This document shows positions 2 to 35,129 of a stretch of DNA of 35,129 nucleotides, one piece after another. Numbering within the stretch: the first letter of the stretch is position 1; each line of letters begins with the position of its first letter. Made by a program: the position numbers and the translations under genes. A model generated the notes under the pieces. That model was not told the DNA's origin. It worked only from the letters and a program-made list of their open reading frames with translations, and did no database searches. This DNA is from Candidatus Micrarchaeota archaeon (GTDB lineage: Archaea; Micrarchaeota; Micrarchaeia; Micrarchaeales; CABMGC01), in assembly GCA_027366155.1 (NCBI GenBank), contig DAHXKV010000002.1, forward strand, positions 1 to 35,129, in the 5' to 3' direction.

Positions 2-2443
2 TTCAACAACTACTGGAACTTCGCAGGAACAAGCCTTCCTACGGGCTGGACCTCGGCAACAACGCCAGGCTCAGGAAACACGGTAACAGTCAGCAACGGC
101 CTGCAGTTATATGTCTCCGGAGGTCCATCAAGCGGCGGAAGTCAGCAACCGGCATACGCCTATACTATGTACACAACTCCAATATCCAACTCAAACACCA
201 TGGTGGAAGAAGCCTCTGGATACCTGAACAACGACTATGTTCCAGGATACGACTATGTTGTCTTCTCTCCAACAGGATACTTCACCGAAACAACCGGAAT
301 CACTACAAGCAATCCCCTCTCCGTATTTGACCAGTACAAAGGACTAACCCTTCAGGAGGTGAGCGGTGGACAGAACTTCTACATGCAGGACAACAGCGGA
401 ACAGTTACTTACCTTTCTGCACCACCATGGATATCCAATCAGAACCCCCCTCTCTCAGTCTATTCAACCGTAATCGAGAACAGCTCGATAACGGGAAGCA
501 GCAGCGACTTTGCATACCTCAATTATACCGAAATCGGCAGCATATCCGCAAGCACGCCAAGCAGCAGCTATGTAGGAACCGGGCTAACCTTGGATTTCGA
601 TAACGGCCCCGCGCAGGAAAACCTTTACTGGATACGCACCAGGGACCTTCCCCCTAACGGCGTGATGCCTGTTGTTATCATAGGCTCCCAGTCTCAAGCC
701 TCAGACGTATTCGACCTAAGCGGACATAATTACACCGGTACTGGAACCTACGTTTCTCTAACTGCAAATCCAAACTCATCAATTTATTTTGGAGGTATTT
801 CAAAGCCGAGCAACAGCGGGAACCAGATCACCTTGAAGCTTCCTACCGGAATATCTTATTTTGTCCCAGTAAACATAATAAACTCCCAATCAATAAGCTC
901 GTCGAATAACTTCCAGCAGATGGTTACTGTCGACAGCGCAGCATACTCGTCGTACGAAGCTTCAAACCTCCAGAACATTGAGTTCTTCTACGCAAACGGC
1001 ATCATAATAAACTCATGGCTCGAGAGCGGCAACTCTAACGCCGCAACCAATACAATATACTGGCTGAAGATAGGCCCGCAGATACCTGCCTCGAACCGCC
1101 TCACAGTATACATGGGCTTCGCCTCTCAGTCAACAAACCTCTTCAACACTGCAACCACCGGCGAAGCACCGGAGCTGACCTGTTCCAACCCCTATGTTAC
1201 GGCAAAATGCTCCAACTATGCAGAGTACGACAACGGAGCAAACGTTTTCAATTTCTACACCAACTTCGCCGGTTCAAGCCTCCCATCCAACTGGAAAGAC
1301 ATCAATGGTGTGCAATACGTTGTAGCCAACGGCATCCAGATTACTGGCTATCCGAATGGCAATTCATACATAAACGCAACAATACCTGCATTCCAGCAGG
1401 GCAATGTAATCGATGCTTTAACTATCTTCTCGCCTTCTTATGATGAAAACTTTGAATTCGGAGGCATAGGCAACGGGGGCATTCAAGGCGGCAACGTGCT
1501 CGGGCTTTACGGGTTTGGCGCAACCGGCGAAGGCTACGAGCCGTTGTTCGCTTCTAGCTCCGCATCTGTTGGAACTAACTATCCATATCCCCCAACTGCA
1601 AATGCCCCACAGGTCTTTTCGGTCGTCTACAATGCAAGCATTGTCAATGACGGCATATACGACACAGTCTCTCTATGGAACTATACGAATCCGTATCCGT
1701 ACCCGGGCCAATATGGAGCCTCATATCTCTATCCTTCCGGAAATCCGATGTTTCCTGCTGTGGCTGGAACCTACTACGGGGCGCAAAATCCAACAGACCA
1801 GAATACTACATGGATAAGGGTGAGGACAAACCCTCCAAAAGGAGTCATGCCCTCTGTCACATTCGGGCCGGTGAGTTCCTACAAGACACTGTCCCTATAT
1901 TCCCTTTCGGGATCTGTCATTTCGCTACCGTCAAACAGCTTTTCCTCCAACTCCATATTCATAGAGCCGCAGAACACTGGCATGACTGCCTCATTGAACT
2001 TCATGATGTCCGAACAGCAGTCCTCCGAGGCTTCAGCAAATGCAGTCATCCTCTCGACAAACAGCAATGCCCTCTGCGGCTACGCGCTCACCATCGCATC
2101 CTCCAATTCGATTGACATGTCGGACAACTGCGGCGATTCCTACATTGGGACATACTCGTTCAAGCCGGATACATGGTACAACCTTGCGGTAACTATCTCT
2201 CCGGGCAGCAATGAACTCGAAACGTATTACGTTGACGGAACCGAGGTCAGCCAGGGGGCAAGCCCCTCATGGAACTCGGGAAACCTCTGGACAACCCTCT
2301 TCATCGGCGGGAACTTTGTCGGAGACATATACGGCATGCAGCTTTACAACTCAAGCCTCTCTCCGCAGCAGGTCTACCAACTGTATTCAGACACTCCGCA
2401 GTCGTACACTATTCAGACTGCCCAGCTCTCAAATGCGCCTTGA
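2..2443 (+). CDS. Large surface protein, 5'-truncated: two DUF2341-like/lectin-like modules plus a C-terminal LamG (ConA-like) domain
   Basis: Frame is open from base 2 (FNNYWNFAGTSLPTGW...), so the start lies outside the window. Module 1 ends WIRTRDLPPNGVMP. Module 2 runs FQQMVTVDS...IEFFYANG...SWLESGNSN...WIRVRTNPPKGVMPSVTFG. The C-terminus WYNLAVT...YYVDG...FVGDIYGMQLYNSSLSPQQVYQLY fits Laminin_G_3. Confidence 0.85.
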   Translation, partial: FNNYWNFAGTSLPTGWTSATTPGSGNTVTVSNGLQLYVSGGPSSGGSQQPAYAYTMYTTPISNSNTMVEEASGYLNNDYVPGYDYVVFSPTGYFTETTGITTSNPLSVFDQYKGLTLQEVSGGQNFYMQDNSGTVTYLSAPPWISNQNPPLSVYSTVIENSSITGSSSDFAYLNYTEIGSISASTPSSSYVGTGLTLDFDNGPAQENLYWIRTRDLPPNGVMPVVIIGSQSQASDVFDLSGHNYTGTGTYVSLTANPNSSIYFGGISKPSNSGNQITLKLPTGISYFVPVNIINSQSISSSNNFQQMVTVDSAAYSSYEASNLQNIEFFYANGIIINSWLESGNSNAATNTIYWLKIGPQIPASNRLTVYMGFASQSTNLFNTATTGEAPELTCSNPYVTAKCSNYAEYDNGANVFNFYTNFAGSSLPSNWKDINGVQYVVANGIQITGYPNGNSYINATIPAFQQGNVIDALTIFSPSYDENFEFGGIGNGGIQGGNVLGLYGFGATGEGYEPLFASSSASVGTNYPYPPTANAPQVFSVVYNASIVNDGIYDTVSLWNYTNPYPYPGQYGASYLYPSGNPMFPAVAGTYYGAQNPTDQNTTWIRVRTNPPKGVMPSVTFGPVSSYKTLSLYSLSGSVISLPSNSFSSNSIFIEPQNTGMTASLNFMMSEQQSSEASANAVILSTNSNALCGYALTIASSNSIDMSDNCGDSYIGTYSFKPDTWYNLAVTISPGSNELETYYVDGTEVSQGASPSWNSGNLWTTLFIGGNFVGDIYGMQLYNSSLSPQQVYQLYSDTPQSYTIQTAQLSNAP
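911..1164 (+). repeat. Copy A of conserved surface-protein constant block
   Basis: Aligns without gaps to 31549-31802 (about 16 mismatches in 254 by hand count) and to the reverse complement of 34285-34538. Confidence 0.95.
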
Positions 2444-3443: not shown

Positions 3444-4559
3444 ATGAACGGGAACAACTGCCAACGCAGAAGCATCACGCCAAACAGGCACGGCGCACTC
3501 ATATTCCTAATACTGTCAGTGCTCGTGCTGCCGCTGGCATACGCGCAGGCGGCCACAGCAATACAGTCCCAGATATGCGGCATAATCTCGATAATAAGCT
3601 CGGTAGTAGGCATACTGGCCATATTCCTCTTCGTAGTCGGCGCCCTCCTCTACTCATTAGCGCACATCTTCCCTGCCGCAGGCAACCTCAAGGGCAGCGC
3701 ACAGGGCTGGGGCATCGGTATGATAATAGGCGGGATAATCGGCATAGTCCTATACATACTCTCCTCATTCATAATCTACAGGCTTGCTTCATTCAGTGGC
3801 AACAGCAGCATACCTGCAATCACCCAGGTTGACTGCAACTCGCAGGCAACGACCACTGCCGCATCGTCTGCCCAACAGCCTCCTCCGGTATCGGTACTCT
3901 CTCAAACAAATTCCACCTCAAAGGCCGCCCGGTCTGGTGCTGGGGGCCTATATGCAATAAACAGCAAGAGCACCTCTGCGCCTCTCCAGTCTGCCAGCAT
4001 GCCACGATGCCAATACTACGGCTCCCAGGTAATAAACGGCGACTTCGGCTACGGAAATTATTCGGGATGGACCGAATCGGGCACTGGCTTCGGCTCCTCT
4101 CCTGTTAACCTGAGCGTTGCGGATTCTGAAGGAAATTACTACCTGGGGAAATGGTCCGGATATTCGGGGGCTTACTTTGCGACTACCTTCTCTAAAACGG
4201 CTTCTGAGTCGCCGGCCAGCCTGACTTCAGAGCCCTTCCTTGTGACTGCCCCATACCTCAACTTCAAGATAATCTCCCCGTACAATCTGGGGATATACCT
4301 GGAGGTTCTATCCTCAAACTCCGTCCTGCTCACCATTCACTACAACACGACAAATGGCCAGGGTTCGTATCCTCCTGGCACGTTTGCCAACGCAAGCATA
4401 TACCTGGGATCACTGATGTGCAGAAATGCAAGCATATCCATAGTCTCACAGTCAGCCGGAAGCCCAGGAGGCAGCCAGTTCATAGCCGTTGGCGACTTCC
4501 ATCTGAGCAACTATTCCGACTCAACGCCGGGCATACTCGAAAACAGCACTGTATCATAG
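3444..4559 (+). CDS. Membrane protein with a VirB2/TrbC-pilin-like N-terminus, S/T/A/P linker and C-terminal carbohydrate-binding-like jelly-roll domain
   Basis: Signal-like segment ending AYA-QA, two hydrophobic helices separated by HIFPAAGNLKGSAQGW, then NGDFGYGNYSGWT...SEPFLVTAPYLNF. TTTATAAT at about 3396. Start position uncertain. Confidence 0.6.
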   Translation: MNGNNCQRRSITPNRHGALIFLILSVLVLPLAYAQAATAIQSQICGIISIISSVVGILAIFLFVVGALLYSLAHIFPAAGNLKGSAQGWGIGMIIGGIIGIVLYILSSFIIYRLASFSGNSSIPAITQVDCNSQATTTAASSAQQPPPVSVLSQTNSTSKAARSGAGGLYAINSKSTSAPLQSASMPRCQYYGSQVINGDFGYGNYSGWTESGTGFGSSPVNLSVADSEGNYYLGKWSGYSGAYFATTFSKTASESPASLTSEPFLVTAPYLNFKIISPYNLGIYLEVLSSNSVLLTIHYNTTNGQGSYPPGTFANASIYLGSLMCRNASISIVSQSAGSPGGSQFIAVGDFHLSNYSDSTPGILENSTVS

Positions 4560-4663
4560 GCAGACGTGCTGCATTCGCATCAAAGCATATGCATGCTTCC
4601 TGCAGATGCCCCGGCTGGCCTACAGGCTTAATGCTTTAAAACCTTACATGCCCTATATAACGC

Positions 4664-5308
4664 ATGGACCTGCTCTCGAAATCTATAATAGCCGCAGCAT
4701 TCATAGTGGCGCTAATCTTCGCAGGCTATTATGTAATAGGTCATGTCTCATTCAGCAGGCAGGTCACAGAGCAGCAGGCAGTCTCACTGGTGATGCACGA
4801 CTTGCAGAACTCCTATCCAAACGCGCTGATAAACATCACAAACGTAACTCCTTCAGAATACCCCGGCAGCTGGCATCTTCTCGCATCAATAATCTTCAAT
4901 TCCACCTCGCCGTGCCCCTCGTACTACATCTATTCATTCGACTATCCAAAATACGGGTTTGTCTCAAGGATGGAAAACACTTATACCTCGGGATGCGAGG
5001 TGCTCGGAAGCTCCGGCGGCGGAAATGCGATCGGATCATACCCTGCCGCGATAACAGTCTCCTACGAGCACAGGAACTACACTGTACTGGGTCCGTTCAT
5101 AGAGAAGTATGGATTTGCCAACGTGACTGCGCACGCCACCTACTACCGATTCATCGATATACCTGGATGGAGCTGCGCAATAAGCGACTGCAACAACGTC
5201 TGGGTGGTGAATTACACTGCAGCAGGCCCTCCACAGCACAGCGTTGAGATATTCCTCTCGCAGGTAAACGGCTCAGTCCTCGCGCAGCTTCCCTCAAACT
5301 CTACCTGA
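4664..5308 (+). CDS. Hypothetical membrane-anchored extracellular protein
   Basis: N-terminal TM helix, several NxS/T sequons, Cys pairs. Confidence 0.7.
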   Translation: MDLLSKSIIAAAFIVALIFAGYYVIGHVSFSRQVTEQQAVSLVMHDLQNSYPNALINITNVTPSEYPGSWHLLASIIFNSTSPCPSYYIYSFDYPKYGFVSRMENTYTSGCEVLGSSGGGNAIGSYPAAITVSYEHRNYTVLGPFIEKYGFANVTAHATYYRFIDIPGWSCAISDCNNVWVVNYTAAGPPQHSVEIFLSQVNGSVLAQLPSNST

Positions 5309-5312
5309 ATCC

Positions 5313-5789
5313 TCAGGCGACAATCCGCCTGTGCATGCGCACCTGCCCGTCTCCCGCGGCTCCCTTCCTTTCCAAGACCTTGAAGCCTTTCCTGTAGAAA
5401 AAAGCCGCGGCACCGGCATTCGAGTCCATGACCTCTGCATAAGCCTCATCAACGCCCATTTTAATTGCCTCTTCGAGAGAGGCCATGAGCAGCATGCTGC
5501 CAATGCCTTTTCTCCTCTCCCCACGCGCAACCAGTATGCCCACAATCCCTCCCGCGGCTCCCTCCTTCACTATCTCGCACTCGCCGATTATCCTGCCGCT
5601 CTCTTCAGCGACAAGATCGACCATCTCTCCAGCCATGATGCCTACCAGCTTTGCCTTGAAAATTTCAGAGAAGCTCTTCCTGTCCTTTATCCTTCCCGGC
5701 ACCAGCGCATCGGGTCTTTCTCCCATCATCTCCTTTACAAGAGAAAAAATACCGTCAGCGTCACCGAAGTCAAGCCTCCGTATCTCCAT
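5313..5789 (-). CDS. GNAT family N-acetyltransferase
   Basis: Acetyl-CoA motif A VARGERRKGIGSML and N..A..FFYRKGF. Confidence 0.88.
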   Translation of the reverse strand: MEIRRLDFGDADGIFSLVKEMMGERPDALVPGRIKDRKSFSEIFKAKLVGIMAGEMVDLVAEESGRIIGECEIVKEGAAGGIVGILVARGERRKGIGSMLLMASLEEAIKMGVDEAYAEVMDSNAGAAAFFYRKGFKVLERKGAAGDGQVRMHRRIVA

Positions 5790-12675: not shown

Positions 12676-13341
12676 ATGACAAAACAAACCACCTCAAGCA
12701 TGCGGGTTGCAGGGGAGCTTACTGAGGCAATCAGGACAATAGACAGACTTATGCGCGAAAACAATGAGCTTCACAAAGAAAACAATGAGCTTCGCAGGCA
12801 TGCCCATGAGGACGCGCTTACCGGCATCGGAAACAAGAGGGCATTCCTTATCGAGTTTGAAGGGGCAGTGCACGCCTACCGCAGGGATTATCCCGGAACT
12901 GTTCCATTCTCGGTTGTGGTAATAGACGCGAACAACCTCAAGATAATCAACGACGCGCTGGGGCATGCGGCAGGCGACGACCTGCTAAGGGCCATAGCAA
13001 AAGGCATAGTCTCCACAACAAGGACCGGAAAAGACTTCTCCGCAAGGATAGGCGGCGACGAATTTGTGGTGCTGATCAAAGGGCCTGCAGACGCGTTCTC
13101 GATAAGGATACATAAGGTACTCGAGGCCATAGCTGCCAAAAACGGGCTCGGATTCCCCGTAAGCATCTCGTTGGGCAGCGTCTCGATAAATGAGATAGAC
13201 ACTGAAGAAAGGCTCTCATCTCCTACTGAAAAAATCATCAAATCAATGCTTGACATTGCGGATTCGAGGATGTACGAACACAAAGCACGCTCGAAGAACG
13301 GCAGAAATCCAGCTGCGATTGCAAGCGCAATCAGGCCGTAA
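12676..13341 (+). CDS. Diguanylate cyclase (coiled coil + GGDEF domain)
   Basis: DALTGIGNKR, VIDANNLKIINDALGHAAGDDLL, ARIGGDEF, SISLG, ADSRMYEHK. Confidence 0.95.
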   Translation: MTKQTTSSMRVAGELTEAIRTIDRLMRENNELHKENNELRRHAHEDALTGIGNKRAFLIEFEGAVHAYRRDYPGTVPFSVVVIDANNLKIINDALGHAAGDDLLRAIAKGIVSTTRTGKDFSARIGGDEFVVLIKGPADAFSIRIHKVLEAIAAKNGLGFPVSISLGSVSINEIDTEERLSSPTEKIIKSMLDIADSRMYEHKARSKNGRNPAAIASAIRP

Positions 13342-28299: not shown

Positions 28300-29533
28300 C
28301 CGGATGTCTATTCTGTAAAACCTTCCTTCCAAGCATCGGATAAGCGCTTCTTAGAAGCGCGCCTGTCATCGTCTGATCTACTAAAAAACCAAGCCCGTGT
28401 ATCCTGAAATCCTCTTCGGATACCTTTGATATCCTATTCAGATCCCTAGCGCTTATGCCGAGTTCCGATTCAACAAGCCACCTGGTGGCGCTTCTTGCAA
28501 TCTCAGGGTTTTTGCGGGCGAATTCACTTATCTCCTTCAATTCCCACGGCAGTATGCGGTGCTCCGGAAACGCATCGTTCAGTGCAAGGAAAACGTTCCC
28601 TCCATAATATTCTGAAAACATATCCGCCAAGCACCCTCTGGACAGGTCACTGCTTGATATCCCGAGGACTGACCTCCTATCCGAGACGTCAACCCCGGAG
28701 ACCTCCGCTGCCCATCTTATTGCGCGTCCCCTCTTCTCCTTGGGCTCGAAGAATTCACTGCTTAGGTGCTTCATCTCCCATTCCATTATCTTATATTCGG
28801 GATAGGAAGCATTGACTGCTTCATAAACATTACCACCAAAAAACCGGTATAGCAGTATCCTGTGCCAGCGCCTGAAATGCCTCTCATGCACTGAGAGCAG
28901 TCCTTCTCTTTTCTGCTTCTCTCCGAGTACATATTTGGCCAGCATAAGCCTTATTTCTTTCACAGCATTTTTCCTTTCTTCCAGCACATCCGGCTGGGCA
29001 AGATATTCCTTGACTGTTTCTGGGCTTGCGCTTTCAGTGTCCAAACTCCTTCCTGCGCCTTCTGCATCTGTATTTTCTGCTCCTGCGCTCTTGCTGCCCC
29101 GCAGCGCTGCGTGCATCCTAGCATAATACTCTGCGCTGGCCGGAACAGATTTTCCTCCCTGCGCGGTTGCCATCCTTGAAAACAGCCTGACCATGCTCTT
29201 AGCCGTCTCCATTGGGGACTTCCTTGATTCGCCTTTTATGTTTGTGTGCGCGCCAAAACCCACTGCGAGCTCTAGCATTCCTATCAGCTGCTCTGTCTGC
29301 GGCAGTGTAATCAGGAAGTTTACAAGCTGGAGGTTCTCGTTTTCCCCAAATTTACCATACTTCGCAAGCCATCTATCCTTGCTGAGAATATCTGCAAAGG
29401 CTGCCACATCTTTCCTTCTGGCAGCTTCCTCCACAAGCGCTGCAACAGGGTTCCTGCCTCTAATCCCCTGCCCTGCATTTGCATTTTCGGCTACAATGCC
29501 ACCCATACGATCAAAATTCAATATATCTGCCAT
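28277..29533 (-). CDS. Hypothetical protein: degenerate ankyrin-like N-terminus plus DUF4046-like repeats
   Basis: LELAVGFGAHTNIKGESRKSPMETA; repeats FFGGNVYEAVNASYPEYKIMEWEMK...AIRW and YYGGNVFLALNDAFPEHRILPWELK...ATRW. Confidence 0.7.
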   Translation of the reverse strand: MADILNFDRMGGIVAENANAGQGIRGRNPVAALVEEAARRKDVAAFADILSKDRWLAKYGKFGENENLQLVNFLITLPQTEQLIGMLELAVGFGAHTNIKGESRKSPMETAKSMVRLFSRMATAQGGKSVPASAEYYARMHAALRGSKSAGAENTDAEGAGRSLDTESASPETVKEYLAQPDVLEERKNAVKEIRLMLAKYVLGEKQKREGLLSVHERHFRRWHRILLYRFFGGNVYEAVNASYPEYKIMEWEMKHLSSEFFEPKEKRGRAIRWAAEVSGVDVSDRRSVLGISSSDLSRGCLADMFSEYYGGNVFLALNDAFPEHRILPWELKEISEFARKNPEIARSATRWLVESELGISARDLNRISKVSEEDFRIHGLGFLVDQTMTGALLRSAYPMLGRKVLQNRHPAKGALRE

Positions 29534-29711
29534 GGTATTTAGACATTGGGCTTTTAGGGCATCTACTTAAAAATACAACTGCAATCCCCGGCCTGCAACG
29601 GATTTGTTGAATATGTGTCTTTTTGAGCTATCTTATCTAACAGACTCGCCTGCAACAAAACTCCTAAATATGAGCAATACAAAACAATCCTATTGTAATG
29701 ATGGTCATTGC

Positions 29712-30560
29712 ATGAAGCTAACCACAATATCTACATGGTCGAGTATTCGGGCTTCAGGAAGCGTAAGCAATCCAGAGCCAAAAGACATAGTAAGAATGAT
29801 AGCCACTGGCGACACAGACTCGCTCAGGTCTCTCGGCCCAGAAATGCTTGGGCACAATTATTCTAAATTTGGTTACGGGAATTCCCTGCTAAAGGTTATA
29901 ATCAGGATATCGCCCCCAGGGTCCATGAATGAAGCTTTGCAGATAGCACTAAAGGCAGGCGCAGAACCTTCCACCGAAGAGATAGTCGCGCTCAATAAGA
30001 AGATTGCATACTTTAGGTCCAAGCGAATTGTGCACACTGCCAAAAACATAGACAGAGAAGGCAATCTGGCAGACAGCGTGCTGGCGCTTAAGCGCGCGAT
30101 GGCAAGCAAACAGTCTGCGGATGCCATCGCCGCAGGAAGCCAGATGCCTGCAACACACACCGAAACGGCCAGAGGAAGCTATGAATCGGCCTCAGGCCTG
30201 CGTATATCCGCAATAAGAAGGGCACTTGACAATGCTGATGTCCAGGGACTATCCCGGGCGCTCTCCACACTCTCCAAGTCAACCGGCACCACAGGCCCAC
30301 TTTCTGCGGATTATGGCGACGGGATGCAAAAAGCCTCCCTGCTAAGCAGGATAGTCGACCTGCACTTCAGAAATGGGCTTGATCCAAGTCCGACAATCAA
30401 ACTTGTTGAGCTGGCGCTGAGCCGTGGAGCAGTTCCTGACTACGACCTCCTCCGCAGAGTGGCTGCAATGAATAACGCCGCGGTCAATTTCAAAGAAGGG
30501 GATCCGGCAAAGATTTTCCCTGAAACCCTTTTCACGGTTCTCCTTCCGATGCGCAAATAA
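29712..30560 (+). CDS. Hypothetical protein with two degenerate ankyrin-like modules
   Basis: IATGDTDSL...LQIALKAGAEPS and ALDNADVQGL...VELALSRGAVPD. Start uncertain. Confidence 0.6.
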   Translation: MKLTTISTWSSIRASGSVSNPEPKDIVRMIATGDTDSLRSLGPEMLGHNYSKFGYGNSLLKVIIRISPPGSMNEALQIALKAGAEPSTEEIVALNKKIAYFRSKRIVHTAKNIDREGNLADSVLALKRAMASKQSADAIAAGSQMPATHTETARGSYESASGLRISAIRRALDNADVQGLSRALSTLSKSTGTTGPLSADYGDGMQKASLLSRIVDLHFRNGLDPSPTIKLVELALSRGAVPDYDLLRRVAAMNNAAVNFKEGDPAKIFPETLFTVLLPMRK

Positions 30561-30613
30561 TGCCATTTAATATATCTGAACAGGCGCAATATAAGAATTG
30601 AAAGAGTGTTGTA

Positions 30614-31141
30614 ATGCAAACCACAAGAACCAGATCTCCTGAAATGCAGCATGTACCATCGGCTACGGGTTCATTAACCTCAGGCAACCAGTTGACTTCC
30701 AGAAAGCTTCCTTCCTTCATGCTTGTAGGCATGGCTGTTGCAGGGCTTTCACTCAACGGATGCGCACAAAATCTCGGAAACACGACCAAGGTAGATATAG
30801 GCCGGAAAACGATGTACGTGCGTGTACAGAATCCCAGCTACGGGGGCATGAGCTCTTTAAACTTCCACCGGTTTCATTACGAGGTAACTGCAAAACGATT
30901 TGGCTCAACCTGTATCACATACGCCGCTGATTTGGATGCAACTTTCCCCCCAAACCTCGGAGGCAGGGTGCCGTTTGCAATGCCTGAATTCTACTACCCG
31001 AAGGAACTGCGCCGTGCGATAATTGACAATACCGACCAGACAATCGGGATAATCAGCAGGGCATGCAACCTCGGCCAAATATCAGCGCATGTCAAGATTA
31101 CCGGATATCCTGCTGAGCTAATAGGCTTCAAGAGGAACTAG
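30614..31141 (+). CDS. Hypothetical putative lipoprotein
   Basis: Hydrophobic stretch followed by lipobox-like LSLNGC; TTTAATAT box upstream. Confidence 0.6.
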   Translation: MQTTRTRSPEMQHVPSATGSLTSGNQLTSRKLPSFMLVGMAVAGLSLNGCAQNLGNTTKVDIGRKTMYVRVQNPSYGGMSSLNFHRFHYEVTAKRFGSTCITYAADLDATFPPNLGGRVPFAMPEFYYPKELRRAIIDNTDQTIGIISRACNLGQISAHVKITGYPAELIGFKRN

Positions 31142-31395
31142 TATCCTCAAGCGTCGCCATGCGGTCTCTGGCCTTGCCTCTGTACTGCCATACGCAAGCC
31201 ATACGTTTTAAGGCGCAATGCCTTTTTACTGCTTTTCCGAAAGCGGAGCCAGGGTTTCATGGAAACCGGAAAGCTTTATTAATCTTTCTAACCACTACCG
31301 CAAAGGTTTAAATACCTTGCACGAACAACCTTCTTGTTTGTGTGGTTCTGCATGGTTGGAGGCCTTGCAGTGTAGCCCGCAAGCAATGTGATATA

Positions 31396-32427
31396 ATGGG
31401 AAATAGGTCCTACGTTATAGTGTTACTTGGTATGTTGCTGGCACTGATGCCTGTCCTGAACGCAGCAGGAGCGATCGCTCCCTCTGGAATACTCAAGTAC
31501 GTTCCAATCACCATATCCAATGCGCAGTCCTCAGCCACGCCTCTGAACTTCCAGCAGATGGTTACTGTTGACAGCGCAACATACTCGTCGTACGAAGCTT
31601 CAAACCTCCAGAACATTGAGTTCTTCTACGCAAACGGCATTATAATAAACTCATGGCTCGAGAGCGGCAACTCTAACGCCGCCTCAAGTACCTTATATTG
31701 GCTGAACATAGGCCCGCAGATACCTGCCTCAGGCAGCCTTACAGTATACATGGGCTTCGCCTCTCAGTCAACAAACCTCTTCAACACTGCAACCACCGGC
31801 GAGGCCCCGCAGCTCTCGCCCAGCTACGCCGAGTACGACAACGGCGCAGGCGTATTCAATTTCTACGATGACTTTGCAGGGACGACCCTAAGCTCCAAAT
31901 GGACGCCGTCTTCCCAATTATCCTATTATGTGGACAACGGAATAACGGTAAACGGGCAATCCACTACCTTCCCGTCGGGAATAACTACAAATACCCTAAC
32001 AAACCCCTACACATTCAATGCACCTGGCATAGTTGAGTTCTATGGATATGTAGGAATAGACACATATGGGGAGTCGGAAGGTTTTGCAGGGTCACCAACA
32101 GCCTCTATCTTTACATACGAATATGGTGGCGATCAGTGGTATGCCTGCAACACTTCCACCTGTGCGGGCTTCGGCTCTTTTGGAAATGGGGAAGGCTTAT
32201 ACGGGGCTGAAGTAGAAAGCAATGGCAATGTCTTTTATTACGAGAACTACAACACATACACAGCTACCGAGACCTCATACAACGCCGCGCTATCTCCATT
32301 ATGGTTAACGATCGTCGGAGGCGCCGGCAATGGTGGCAACAATGCCGGACCAGTATACTATATGCGCGAGCGTGCATACCCGCCCAACGGCGTCATGCCT
32401 TCGGTCTCATTCGGATCAATCCAATGA
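31396..32427 (+). CDS. Secreted single-module DUF2341-like surface protein
   Basis: Signal peptide; YVPITISNAQS...FQQMVTVDS...; ends RAYPPNGVMPSVSFG. Confidence 0.88.
   Translation: MGNRSYVIVLLGMLLALMPVLNAAGAIAPSGILKYVPITISNAQSSATPLNFQQMVTVDSATYSSYEASNLQNIEFFYANGIIINSWLESGNSNAASSTLYWLNIGPQIPASGSLTVYMGFASQSTNLFNTATTGEAPQLSPSYAEYDNGAGVFNFYDDFAGTTLSSKWTPSSQLSYYVDNGITVNGQSTTFPSGITTNTLTNPYTFNAPGIVEFYGYVGIDTYGESEGFAGSPTASIFTYEYGGDQWYACNTSTCAGFGSFGNGEGLYGAEVESNGNVFYYENYNTYTATETSYNAALSPLWLTIVGGAGNGGNNAGPVYYMRERAYPPNGVMPSVSFGSIQ
31549..31857 (+). repeat. Copy C of constant block; left arm of a 309 bp inverted repeat
   Basis: About 13 mismatches in 309 (hand count) and no gaps against the reverse complement of 34230-34538. 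Confidence 0.95.
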
Positions 32428-32455
32428 ATATCAGGGACACCTTCCCTCAGGCGCG

Positions 32456-33484
32456 TCATTTGTACATTCCCGCAATCCCTCCGAAGGACTCCAGCTGCTT
32501 TCCGGCTTCATCTTCAGAATTGAATATCTCTATCGCTACTCCGTGCCTGTCCGCATCATTCAGAATTTTTTTTATTTCCTCTGTGTTGAGTTTCGAGTCG
32601 TTTACGAGAATCATCTCTATCTTGTAATCGTTCAGATGCTCGCGTATCTTCTCGACGCCGAGGAGCGCTGACCCACTGCGCATGCCCCTGAAAAGTGCAT
32701 CAAGGAGCTCGAACTCCCTTCTGACGTGCTCTGTTTCAAGCATCTTCGAGACTTCATGGCTGCGCACAGCTTCTCTTATGCCCGACCGCTCCGCATCGCC
32801 CACTGGCACATAGACAAGCCTCTTCCCTGTCTCAATCCCTTTGTATTCTACGTATTTCCTTATATCATCCTTGGTGAACCCCGGCCCTGCAATTATGACG
32901 AGTTCGACGTCCATCCTCTTCACTGAATCTATGATGTCTTTGAAATACTTCTCGCGCTGCGCTTCGAAATCCTTCTCCTTCATCCTTTTGCTCAGGTGTG
33001 AAAACAGCTCTCCGGAGAGGTCTATTCCATATCCCCGTATGTATGCCAAGGTTGCCTTTTCGTCATCCACTGCGATGACTCCCAGCCTCGGCCGTTTGGA
33101 ATCAAGAACTGCCTGTCTTATCCTCCTTATTATGAAATCTCCCCAGCCCTCTGGCTTCTCTATCTCAATCTCGTCCAAAGGCCCGACAGTGAGGGTGTGG
33201 TAGCTGTTTACCTGTATATATTCCTCAGGATGGCCCGAGACTATCTTCCCTATTATGCGTAGCCTTCCTGCCCCTCTGTCAAGTTCAGTTTTTTCAACAA
33301 CCAGCCTTACGAACACCTCCTTCTGCTCGCCTTTGTCTGTCTCGCTGGCCTTGAACCTGCGGTAGCTCTTGGAGGAGACATAATTGTCTTTAGATACCAC
33401 CATTGCAAGAAGGTAAAGATCCTCGAATGACTCAGGGACTAGCTTTACTGTGTTTGTTGAATCATAAAACTTTACTGACTTCAT
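32456..33484 (-). CDS. pelA: Pelota (Dom34) ribosome rescue factor
   Basis: LVPESFEDLYLL, RLRIIGKI, YHTL, IIAGPGFTK, AGKQLESFGGIAG. Confidence 0.95.
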   Translation of the reverse strand: MKSVKFYDSTNTVKLVPESFEDLYLLAMVVSKDNYVSSKSYRRFKASETDKGEQKEVFVRLVVEKTELDRGAGRLRIIGKIVSGHPEEYIQVNSYHTLTVGPLDEIEIEKPEGWGDFIIRRIRQAVLDSKRPRLGVIAVDDEKATLAYIRGYGIDLSGELFSHLSKRMKEKDFEAQREKYFKDIIDSVKRMDVELVIIAGPGFTKDDIRKYVEYKGIETGKRLVYVPVGDAERSGIREAVRSHEVSKMLETEHVRREFELLDALFRGMRSGSALLGVEKIREHLNDYKIEMILVNDSKLNTEEIKKILNDADRHGVAIEIFNSEDEAGKQLESFGGIAGMYK

Positions 33485-33617
33485 GGCACTCACGCGCTGA
33501 AACTGATGCGTTATGGGGATATTTAAGGGATTGCCATTTAGCCTTTTTATCTGGCGTTCGGTGGCTTGAACGGCCAGATGGCGCGGCTATCCTCCGTGAA
33601 AGTATTATACTATAAAC

Positions 33618-35129
33618 TTATCCTATGGCTCCAAACGTGACAGAGGGCATTACGCCATTGGGAGGGTAGGCACGGGTGCGGAGCCATTGAAGATTTGCCG
33701 GATACGGATATGTATATGCCTCAGCATAAGCCCCTGATTCAAATATTGCAGGGTAAAGCGGAAGCGATACGGAAGGCGAGGTGAGAGTGCTCCCCAGCTT
33801 TGCATAGTTTGAATAGTAAGCAGAGCTTGAGGCAGAGATGAATGCCACCGACCATATCTGGTTTGCATTTTGGGCTTGGGTGTCGCCGGTGATGCTGTAT
33901 GCAGTACTCTCTGTCTGCGTGCCTTGGAAGTACCCTCCTGGATAAAAACCAGAGCTACTAAACCCTGTGGACAGTGTCATGCCCTGGTAACCGGCTTGAT
34001 TAACTACCGGAACGGTCATCACTCCTATCCCTGTCCAATATATTGATGACGTTTCGTAGAGATTGCCGTAGCCTTCAATCACATTTCCAGGCTGCAAGGC
34101 TGTGCCATACGAGATGTACCCACTGGCTGCCGTTTTTGTAGCGGTAATTCCGTTGTTCACTGTATATGTTATGCCTGTGTTTGTCCATCCGCTCGGCAGG
34201 CTTGCCCCTGCAAAGTTCCAGTAGTTGCTGAATACGTCTGCGCCGTTGTCGTATTCGGCGTAGCTGGGAGAGAGCTGCGGGGCTTCGCCGGTGGTTGCAG
34301 TGTTGAAGAGGTTTGTTGACTGAGAGGCGAAGCCCATGTATACTGTGAGGCTGCTTGAGGCAGGAATCTGCGGGCCTATGTTCAGCCAGTATAAGGTACT
34401 CGAGGCGGCGTTAGAGTTGCCGCTCTCGAGCCATGAGTTTATTATGATGCCATTTGCGTAGAAGAACTCAATGTTCTGGAGGTTTGAAGCTTCGTACGAC
34501 GAGTATGTTGCACTGTCAACAGTGACCATCTGCTGGAAGTCTGAAGGCGTGTTTGAGGACTGGGAGTTCGTGATTGTTATCGGAACGTATGCGGCGATTC
34601 CGGATGGTGTGTTGATGCTGACCTGAATTATGCTGTTTGAGGTGGTTGTAATCAGCGCTGGCGTTTCCGAGTCTATGACGTTTGCATAGAAAGTGTAATT
34701 GCCAAGGGCAGTCTGTTGGTTAGTGTTTAGGAGATAGTTTGAGGAGGAGGCGCCGGATATCTGGGAGAAGGAGTTAGCGCCGGGCGCCTCCTCGTACCAC
34801 TGGTAGGTGTAGGGCGGCAGACCGCCGGTGCTTCCGAGGTAGATTTCCTGCGTCTGGCCCGATTTTATGGAGGAGAATACGGGAAAGATGTTCGAATTGA
34901 GTGGGACGGGCTTGAATGTAACGGTTTCTGAGGAAGTGCATGAGCCGAAAACCGCAATTATGTTTGCGGATCCCGGAGTATTTGAAGAAGCCGAAGAGAG
35001 GGAATTGCCTGCATAGTTTGAATTGGAGTAGAGGCTCTGGAATTCCACATGTGGATCGTTTGAGGAGAACGCGACAGTGGCGCCCGCGATACTCGTCCCG
35101 AGGATGGATACCTGCGCGGCCAGCGGGTC
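33618..35129 (-). CDS. Large surface protein, 5'-truncated: Ig/PKD-like domain plus C-terminal DUF2341-like module
   Basis: Frame is open to the window edge. GGLPPYTYQWY...GNYTFYANVIDS is Ig-like; then YVPITITNSQS...FQQMVTVDS...RAYPPNGVMPSVTFG. Confidence 0.87.
   Translation of the reverse strand, partial: DPLAAQVSILGTSIAGATVAFSSNDPHVEFQSLYSNSNYAGNSLSSASSNTPGSANIIAVFGSCTSSETVTFKPVPLNSNIFPVFSSIKSGQTQEIYLGSTGGLPPYTYQWYEEAPGANSFSQISGASSSNYLLNTNQQTALGNYTFYANVIDSETPALITTTSNSIIQVSINTPSGIAAYVPITITNSQSSNTPSDFQQMVTVDSATYSSYEASNLQNIEFFYANGIIINSWLESGNSNAASSTLYWLNIGPQIPASSSLTVYMGFASQSTNLFNTATTGEAPQLSPSYAEYDNGADVFSNYWNFAGASLPSGWTNTGITYTVNNGITATKTAASGYISYGTALQPGNVIEGYGNLYETSSIYWTGIGVMTVPVVNQAGYQGMTLSTGFSSSGFYPGGYFQGTQTESTAYSITGDTQAQNANQIWSVAFISASSSAYYSNYAKLGSTLTSPSVSLPLYPAIFESGAYAEAYTYPYPANLQWLRTRAYPPNGVMPSVTFGAIG
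34230..34538 (-). repeat. Copy D of constant block; right arm of the inverted repeat
   Basis: Reverse complement matches 31549-31857 and 911-1164. Confidence 0.95.

Follow-up and report, generated by a model that had tools for sequence, protein, structure and literature searches.

In the sap locus of Campylobacter fetus, the conserved block forms the 5' end of the surface-protein genes, and one promoter is moved between complete cassettes. In Neisseria pilE/pilS and Mycoplasma genitalium MgPa, conserved segments flank variable ones and recombination between the copies is non-reciprocal. Here, we analyze an inverted repeat shared by two convergent surface-protein genes, A and B, on either side of the pelota gene (pelA) in a tiny acid-mine archaeon, whose genome is of the ARMAN type and is labeled Micrarchaeota. 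The stretch studied (DAHXKV010000002.1; 35,129 nucleotides [nt]; the window) is the whole of contig C52 in a 61-contig, 778-kb genome that is 78% complete and has a G+C content of 49.6%. The inverted repeat is the block coding for the DUF2341 "stalk" domain of a repeated surface-protein module and not a dedicated pair. The genes probably belong to a paralogous adhesin-like family in which the stalk block is homogenized by gene conversion, the inverted pair around pelA being an accident of gene placement.

The locus resembles sap in that a conserved stretch some hundreds of base pairs long is common to several related surface-protein genes, and homologous recombination across it can change the variable part that is made. 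In contrast to sap, the heads of the proteins lie outside the segment between the repeat arms and only the C-terminal tips would be swapped. Moreover, the arms are 96% identical instead of essentially 100%, and inversion was not seen here. Like pilE/pilS and MgPa, the locus presents a mosaic of conversion tracts. However, it is the conserved block that is converted and not the variable part, and the tips of A and B have no other match in the assembled genome, which hence holds no silent donor copies.

In the excerpted text of two reports on the invertible hsdS loci of Type I restriction-modification systems (PMC4948785, PMC7672463), inverted repeats in paralogous genes likewise allow the in-frame exchange of target-recognition halves. 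Those loci differ in having an adjacent invertase, which was not found here, short or identical repeats, and both orientations documented. A long-read study of intragenic and partial invertons (PMC10028968, excerpted text) covered 42 genomes of Euryarchaeota and Crenarchaeota and reported 12 putative invertons in these archaea. Inversion alters coding sequence there, as it would here, but these invertons are enzyme-mediated, mostly small, and demonstrated by reads, and the excerpt reports none for DPANN. Archaeal type IV pilus loci encode large DUF2341 proteins, for which a role as pilus-tip adhesins was suggested from the analogy to PilY (Makarova et al. 2016, PMC4858521, excerpted text). Gene B and a giant gene at the other end of the window resemble these in size and in their pilin-like N-termini. 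In contrast, the window contains no pilus assembly genes, and neither homogenized blocks nor tip replacement appears in the excerpted DUF2341 account. Lectin-like domains are predicted in DPANN surface proteins in the excerpted part of a Nanobdella preprint (10.1101/2023.10.27.564410). The literature searched on archaeal DUF2341, DPANN lectin-like surface proteins, and archaeal surface-protein inversion contained no account of a comparable DPANN locus.

Two convergent genes share an inverted block

A repeat search of positions 29000 to 35129 returned one inverted pair of 410 nt, 88.5 to 89% complementary, with 2308 nt between its arms. The core of the pair is gap-free and has 13 mismatches over 309 nt (95.8% identity), in agreement with a preliminary description of this DNA, which had given 309 bp and, by hand count, ~96%. 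A repeat of this size cannot have arisen by chance. The features of the locus are as follows, with the strand in parentheses.

31342-32427 (+): gene A, a 361-amino-acid (aa) open reading frame (ORF) with a signal-like N-terminus (Sec-type), the DUF2341 block, and a variable tip.
31480-31889 (+): arm A, with its core at 31549-31857, encoding the predicted DUF2341 beta-sandwich.
31858-32427 (+): tip A, variable, aromatic-rich, and predicted to be concanavalin-A-like, with a conserved RAYPPNGVMPSVSFG segment at its end.
32353-32427 (+): conserved 3' segment of gene A, encoding RAYPPNGVMPSV.FG; its inverted partner is 33618-33692, with 49 of 75 nt identical.
32456-33493 (-): pelA (pelota), matching eRF1_1, eRF1_2, and eRF1_3 at E values of 1.9e-19 to 7e-10.
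33519-33526 (-): TATA-like box TTAAATAT, ~35 nt upstream of the pelA ATG and inside the segment that would invert.
33618-34229 (-): tip B, variable and unrelated to tip A except at the two ends.
33618-35129 (-): gene B, 3' 503 codons, open at the contig end; the rest lies on contig C4 (1-789, minus strand).
34198-34607 (-): arm B, with its core at 34230-34538, from the inverted-repeat search and alignment.

The two arms are in the same codon phase and in frame in both genes, whose proteins are 84% identical over 156 aa. The longest exact run common to the arms is 62 nt; with 13 mismatches in 309 nt, the blocks are not near-identical in the way that frequent exchange of the sap kind would keep them. 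Gene A matches Pfam DUF2341 (PF10102) with 31.8 bits, above the cut-off of 23.4, which neither gene B nor the arm alone reaches, but the domain in gene B is 84% identical to that in gene A. The database version of gene A (P0001, 343 aa, 100% identical) would start at an ATG near 31396, and the signal peptide is our reading of the N-terminus by eye.

Joined across C52 and C4, gene B encodes ~696 to 719 aa. Its N-terminus is pilin-like by eye (a short charged stretch followed by a hydrophobic helix), and P0008 supports the N-terminal 240 aa at 100%. The Ig assignment that the preliminary description gave to this carrier is weak (Big_1, E = 0.001, with 19.5 bits where the cut-off is 34.9). P0008 itself is a 528-aa protein from a separate public contig of 4219 nt, matching window positions 34206-35129 plus C4:1-720. 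Its head and block are near-identical to those of gene B, the two proteins differing at 6 positions ahead of residue 488. Immediately after ...YAEYD it enters the outer part of the block in reverse complement and runs to the same stop as the reverse frame of the window, the turn lying exactly at the inner edge of the repeat. This fold-back contig is probably an artifact.

The interior holds both tips, pelA, and its own TATA-like box, as had been noted. The likely start of pelA is the ATG at 33484, with orthologue alignments beginning at residue 3 or 4, and the TTAAATAT box may serve as its TATA element.

The block belongs to a module present in at least four copies

The contig ends share exact overlaps of 141 nt, which give the order C6(-), C61(-), C52(+), C4(+); the overlapping ends of the window lie at 1-141 and 34989-35129 (contigs C61, C4, and C6). 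Within ~41 kb of the linked contigs C61-C52-C4, there are at least four copies of one module. It consists of a DUF2341 block of ~100 aa, a variable part of 180 to 220 aa, and a conserved W.R.RxxPPNGVMP end. Genes A and B have one module each, and a giant pilin-like gene has two (G1 and G2).

C61, 106-449: block copy in module G1, 84 to 87% identity.
2-2443 (+): 3' part of the giant pilin-like gene, which continues from C61 and carries modules G1 and G2 and, at its C-terminus, Laminin_G_3.
908-1176 (+): block copy in module G2, 93% identical to both arms, direct with respect to arm A and inverted with respect to arm B.

The frame of the giant gene comprises 1414 codons from stop to stop. It begins in C61 with an N-terminus resembling that of gene B, and its C-terminus matches Pfam Laminin_G_3 (E = 7.2e-11). 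The N-termini of both genes were judged by eye against the class III signal peptide of archaeal type IV pilins, which has a short charged start, a cleavage motif, and a hydrophobic helix. The block copies of A, G1, and G2 lie on one strand and that of B on the other. At the module ends, the RAYPPNGVMPSV motif is nearly invariant across 36 family members.

Approximately 2 kb from the start of the giant gene, two ORFs at C61:3734-4150 and 4374-5576 (+) are, by eye, IS200/IS605-type transposase-like and TnpB-like. Elsewhere in the window, a 221-aa ORF (12676-13341, +) contains a full GGDEF diguanylate-cyclase domain (E = 7.6e-26), which is unusual in an archaeon.

Block copies form a patchwork of identities

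In a codon alignment of the four modules, we examined the sites where exactly one of G1 and G2 differs from the other three copies. The 44 sites (27 G1-only and 17 G2-only) fall into just 4 runs, compared to a mean of 21.9 and a minimum of 9 after shuffling; none of 100,000 shuffles gave 4 runs or fewer. The identity between G1 and B is 98 to 100% in alignment windows 51-90, 65% in window 101, and 93% in windows 121-131. Between G2 and A it is 97 to 98% in windows 31-51 and 87% in windows 61-71, and A and B are 94 to 98% identical throughout windows 31-121. In the central block, arm B is nearer to copy G1 than to arm A, and identity falls sharply at the block edges. Since the outlier copy alternates, a single tree cannot account for this pattern, which is a signature of gene conversion. 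Homologous recombination between the block copies has clearly taken place.

The arms of A and B differ in 13 codons of the core, 11 of them synonymously, and their last homogenization was therefore not recent. Outside this genome, no DNA match to the block exceeds 71% (over 312 nt), and any match was found in 48 of 101 same-family genomes, a tally that includes the unpublished G056. The identity of 84 to 100% within the genome versus at most 71% outside it points to concerted evolution rather than general conservation. A diversity-generating retroelement target was also considered and rejected: the 78%-complete genome gave no match to the reverse transcriptase family RVT_1, and the differences between block arms are mostly third-position transitions.

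These observations fit a scheme in which non-reciprocal homologous recombination, presumably dependent on RadA, would keep the block copies 84 to 100% identical in patches. The tips would escape homogenization and diverge or be replaced. Genes A and B would face each other only because gene B lies between pelA and dedA, which are neighbors in relatives. If a crossover took place in the block, the interior would be inverted and the tips exchanged in frame, as a by-product and not as a programmed switch.

Tips are aromatic-rich and predicted to be lectin-like

After the block, the tips extend for 192 aa (A) and 206 aa (B), and 69 of 206 residues are common to both, chiefly near either end. Aromatic residues account for 17.7% of tip A and 16.0% of tip B, compared to 9.0% in the long ORFs of the genome. 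Both measurements support the earlier account of very different, aromatic-rich C-terminal regions of ~190 to 200 aa. Neither tip matches a Pfam family, and NCBIfam gave no match for genes A and B. The closest public relative of tip B is found in P0121 (779 aa), where it is 82% identical and sits on a B-like carrier; no close relative of tip A was found in either protein length class searched. A scan of species-representative genomes with tip B returned eight loci, seven of which span the tip at 29 to 32% identity, while one covers only the first 48 residues at 49%.

Gene A was modeled with AlphaFold2 from an alignment of 36 sequences (mean pLDDT 76.4, pTM 0.75), and the model has seven strands in residues 52 to 154 (pLDDT mostly 85 to 97) and fourteen in residues 174 to 357. 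Foldseek searches of the model against the PDB returned GH16 glucanases, the C-terminal sandwich of GH43 xylosidases, SPRY/B30.2 domains, and the Emp47 lectin. These are fold-class matches with E values of 1e-4 to 1e-7, a probability of 1.0, and TM scores of up to 0.64 on a 186-aa target. The model suggests that the tip is a concanavalin-A-like jelly roll of ~190 aa and DUF2341 a 7-strand sandwich. Lengths and strand counts place the jelly roll in the tip, the aligned residues being unreported. The inner repeat edge falls about where the model passes from the DUF2341 sandwich to the jelly roll.

Relatives mostly carry the block head to tail and replace tips

Among nine loci with family genes from relatives, the block copies are direct repeats in eight, several of them spaced 1.2 to 1.4 kb apart and up to 94 to 95% identical. 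The remaining locus has an inverted pair of 143 nt at 85% identity. Because the block normally lies head to tail, a crossover would delete or duplicate modules, and conservation of the block is not tied to inversion.

Gene A has 494 homologues (E <= 1e-5 among 5212 candidates), and the best 120 of these contain 82 modules with recognizable ends. Module pairs were compared only where the block was full-length. The blocks reach 85% identity or more in 20 pairs, of which 18 have tips no more than 38% identical and 2 have tips at least 90% identical; only the existence of the 18 pairs counts, as the protein database is clustered at 90% and the ratio is uninformative. In four of nine pairs examined (P0056/P0068, P0040/P0087, P0002/P0003, and P0066/P0105), the head and block are 95 to 100% identical and the C-terminal end 86 to 100%, with unrelated tips at 25 to 36%. 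The gene for P0068 lies in G155 and that for P0040 in G036, in each case at the corresponding locus. A search without a positive control did not detect the alternative tips of P0056 and P0087 in G155, G036, or G040. Both P0002 and P0003 end at a contig end just after the second block. Tips have thus been replaced between otherwise identical genes over evolutionary time, by a route that these comparisons do not show.

Gene B separates two ancestral neighbors

Orthologues of pelA were found in 37 of 41 related genomes (a tally including the unpublished G038). Of 13 loci fetched from within the genus or family, 11 have pelA next to a divergently oriented dedA-like gene, with a spacing of ~75 to 150 nt in 10 of these and ~430 nt in one; the other two loci gave no dedA match within the stretch fetched. 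In our genome, dedA lies at C4:834-1466, and gene B sits between it and pelA. The orientation of pelA toward dedA is the ancestral one, as seen in the comparison with relatives that had been suggested as a check. Gene B splits the pair in such a way that 124 nt are kept upstream of pelA (33494-33617) and ~45 nt at dedA (C4:790-833). In the relative G004, family genes are convergent with pelA on its other side, as gene A is here. The gene order could have come about through either one insertion of gene B or two successive inversions.

Public contigs at the locus

Public read-run data were available as k=31 contigs. Nine runs from four studies were found, and four were compared with the window. 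Contigs from runs X1 and X2 cover 30000-31565, 31829-32578, 32549/32617-34253, and 34569/34581-35129, and the public contigs agree with the interior and all four repeat edges as assembled. Uncovered stretches were given no weight. The arms have 5 to 10 times the summed contig depth of the flanks, in line with a block present in several copies. Between 30000-31400 and 32549-34253 of the window, depth differs as well, the left side being 2 to 3 times lower: in X1, it is 4.65 to 6.28 left of arm A versus 18.1 over pelA and tip B, and in X2 ~27 versus 65, with tip A intermediate. There may be several strains that have pelA and tip B in common and differ on the side of gene A. Loose contig ends lie at 32493 and 32534, within the 3' end of pelA. 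We considered the loose ends as rearrangements of this locus and rejected this, as the five strings, with at most 4 substitutions, have no genome match and are attributed to other organisms or strains. Scans of metagenome contigs for pelA relatives and for an exact 53-nt piece of the block returned nothing.

Alternative explanations for the inverted pair

Among the alternatives, reversible inversion by homologous recombination survives best, although we consider it unlikely. According to this explanation, the population holds both states, with the lectin-like tips swapped between a small secreted carrier and a pilin-anchored one. The geometry proposed in the preliminary description stands: an in-frame crossover would invert ~2.3 kb, swap the tips, and leave pelA intact. 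The gap-free, in-frame arms are consistent with this, as are the repeat end near the fold change in the model and the position of the pelA upstream region inside the segment. The copies have demonstrably recombined, relatives have identical heads and blocks with unrelated tips, and one contig break falls at a block/tip junction. In contrast, the contig was assembled through both arms in a single orientation, and the arms are not a privileged pair. Frequent exchange should also keep the arms identical, whereas they are 4% divergent, with mostly synonymous differences and short exact runs. The conserved block is in direct tandem in relatives, and the alternative tips are absent elsewhere in G155 and G036, as far as a search lacking a positive control can tell. 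Furthermore, public proteins contain neither head A with tip B nor head B with tip A, although the search of longer proteins for tip A is weak evidence. The suggested comparison of tip assignments thus brought up no alternative form, and P0121 keeps a tip-B-like tip on a B-like carrier. Inversion at this locus is possible, and for 300-bp repeats of 96% identity it would probably take place at a low rate.

Several points weigh against the gene-conversion explanation favored here. The public contigs stop within the arms and none spans an arm, so that a minority inverted form may exist, and the phasing of heads to tips is taken from one assembly. The break between C61 and C52 comes directly after the G1 block, and that between C52 and C4 lies in the gene B head. 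These two breaks hint at population heterogeneity around the surface-protein genes and suggest assembly-graph branches, hence strain variants, at the DUF2341 block and the gene B head. Reciprocal exchange, too, predicts the four pairs with matching head and block but unrelated tips. The only Rad51-family match in this genome (78% complete) scores 20 bits, below the cut-off; in favor of the explanation, 17 of 21 related genomes have RadA above the cut-off. Finally, the adhesin function and the fold boundary are model-based predictions (pLDDT 76).

A broader proposal is somewhat more doubtful still. In it, the DUF2341 block and the PPNGVMP segment would act as handles of tip-cassette exchange for pilus-tip lectins in ARMAN-type DPANN. 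At this locus, one RadA crossover would swap two lectin tips between secreted and pilin-anchored carriers, the population would hold both forms, and host-binding specificity could change without a dedicated invertase.

There is little likelihood that the repeat arose by recent duplication or domain shuffling and has since been under purifying selection on DUF2341 alone, with no ongoing recombination. The block is conserved at the protein level, with many invariant residues in 36 members, and the predominance of synonymous changes between A and B also agrees with selection. However, synonymous sites are conserved as well, the alternating outliers among the four copies fit no one tree, and identity drops sharply at the block edges.

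An assembly artifact, i.e., a chimeric contig through a multi-copy repeat, is very improbable. The depth of the repeat in the public contigs, the contig ends near repeat copies, and the fold-back of the P0008 contig directly after the block would be in keeping with it. On the other hand, two runs independently cover 31829-32578 and 32549-34253 with 2 to 7 mismatches, plus both outer edges. In addition, no exact stretch in the arms exceeds 62 nt, and the 141-nt overlaps suggest a k of 141, which would separate the arms.

Recombinases were sought in the window and in the genome. As had been reported, there is no site-specific recombinase in the window, none being found among its larger ORFs. The genome has one Xer-like tyrosine recombinase, on the unlinked 2.5-kb contig C50, whose best match is to archaeal XerA but below the cut-off (111.8 versus 220 bits). 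A gene of the resolvase/invertase family was not found in the 78%-complete genome. A genuine shufflon or inverton would have a site-specific recombinase working on sites within the repeat and is hardly credible: the C50 gene speaks for it, but that gene is only XerA-like and unlinked, and the repeat is a long coding block and not a short site. A shufflon-like switch, as in the preliminary description, or a programmed one is therefore not supported, given a family of at least four copies, no invertase found, 13 differences between the arms, mainly direct tandems in relatives, and no recombinant forms among the public proteins searched.

Implications for DPANN surface proteins

On present evidence, the locus is what recombination between paralogues ordinarily produces. 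If inversion were demonstrated, it would represent a recombinase-free tip switch in archaea. The conserved flanks can be used as primers or anchors in population studies. DPANN archaea live attached to hosts, and host recognition is poorly understood. In this pilin-linked family, the stalk is kept uniform within a genome by recombination, in contrast to the predicted lectin-like tip, which is wholly different between otherwise identical genes. This contrast makes the tips good candidates for determinants of host specificity.

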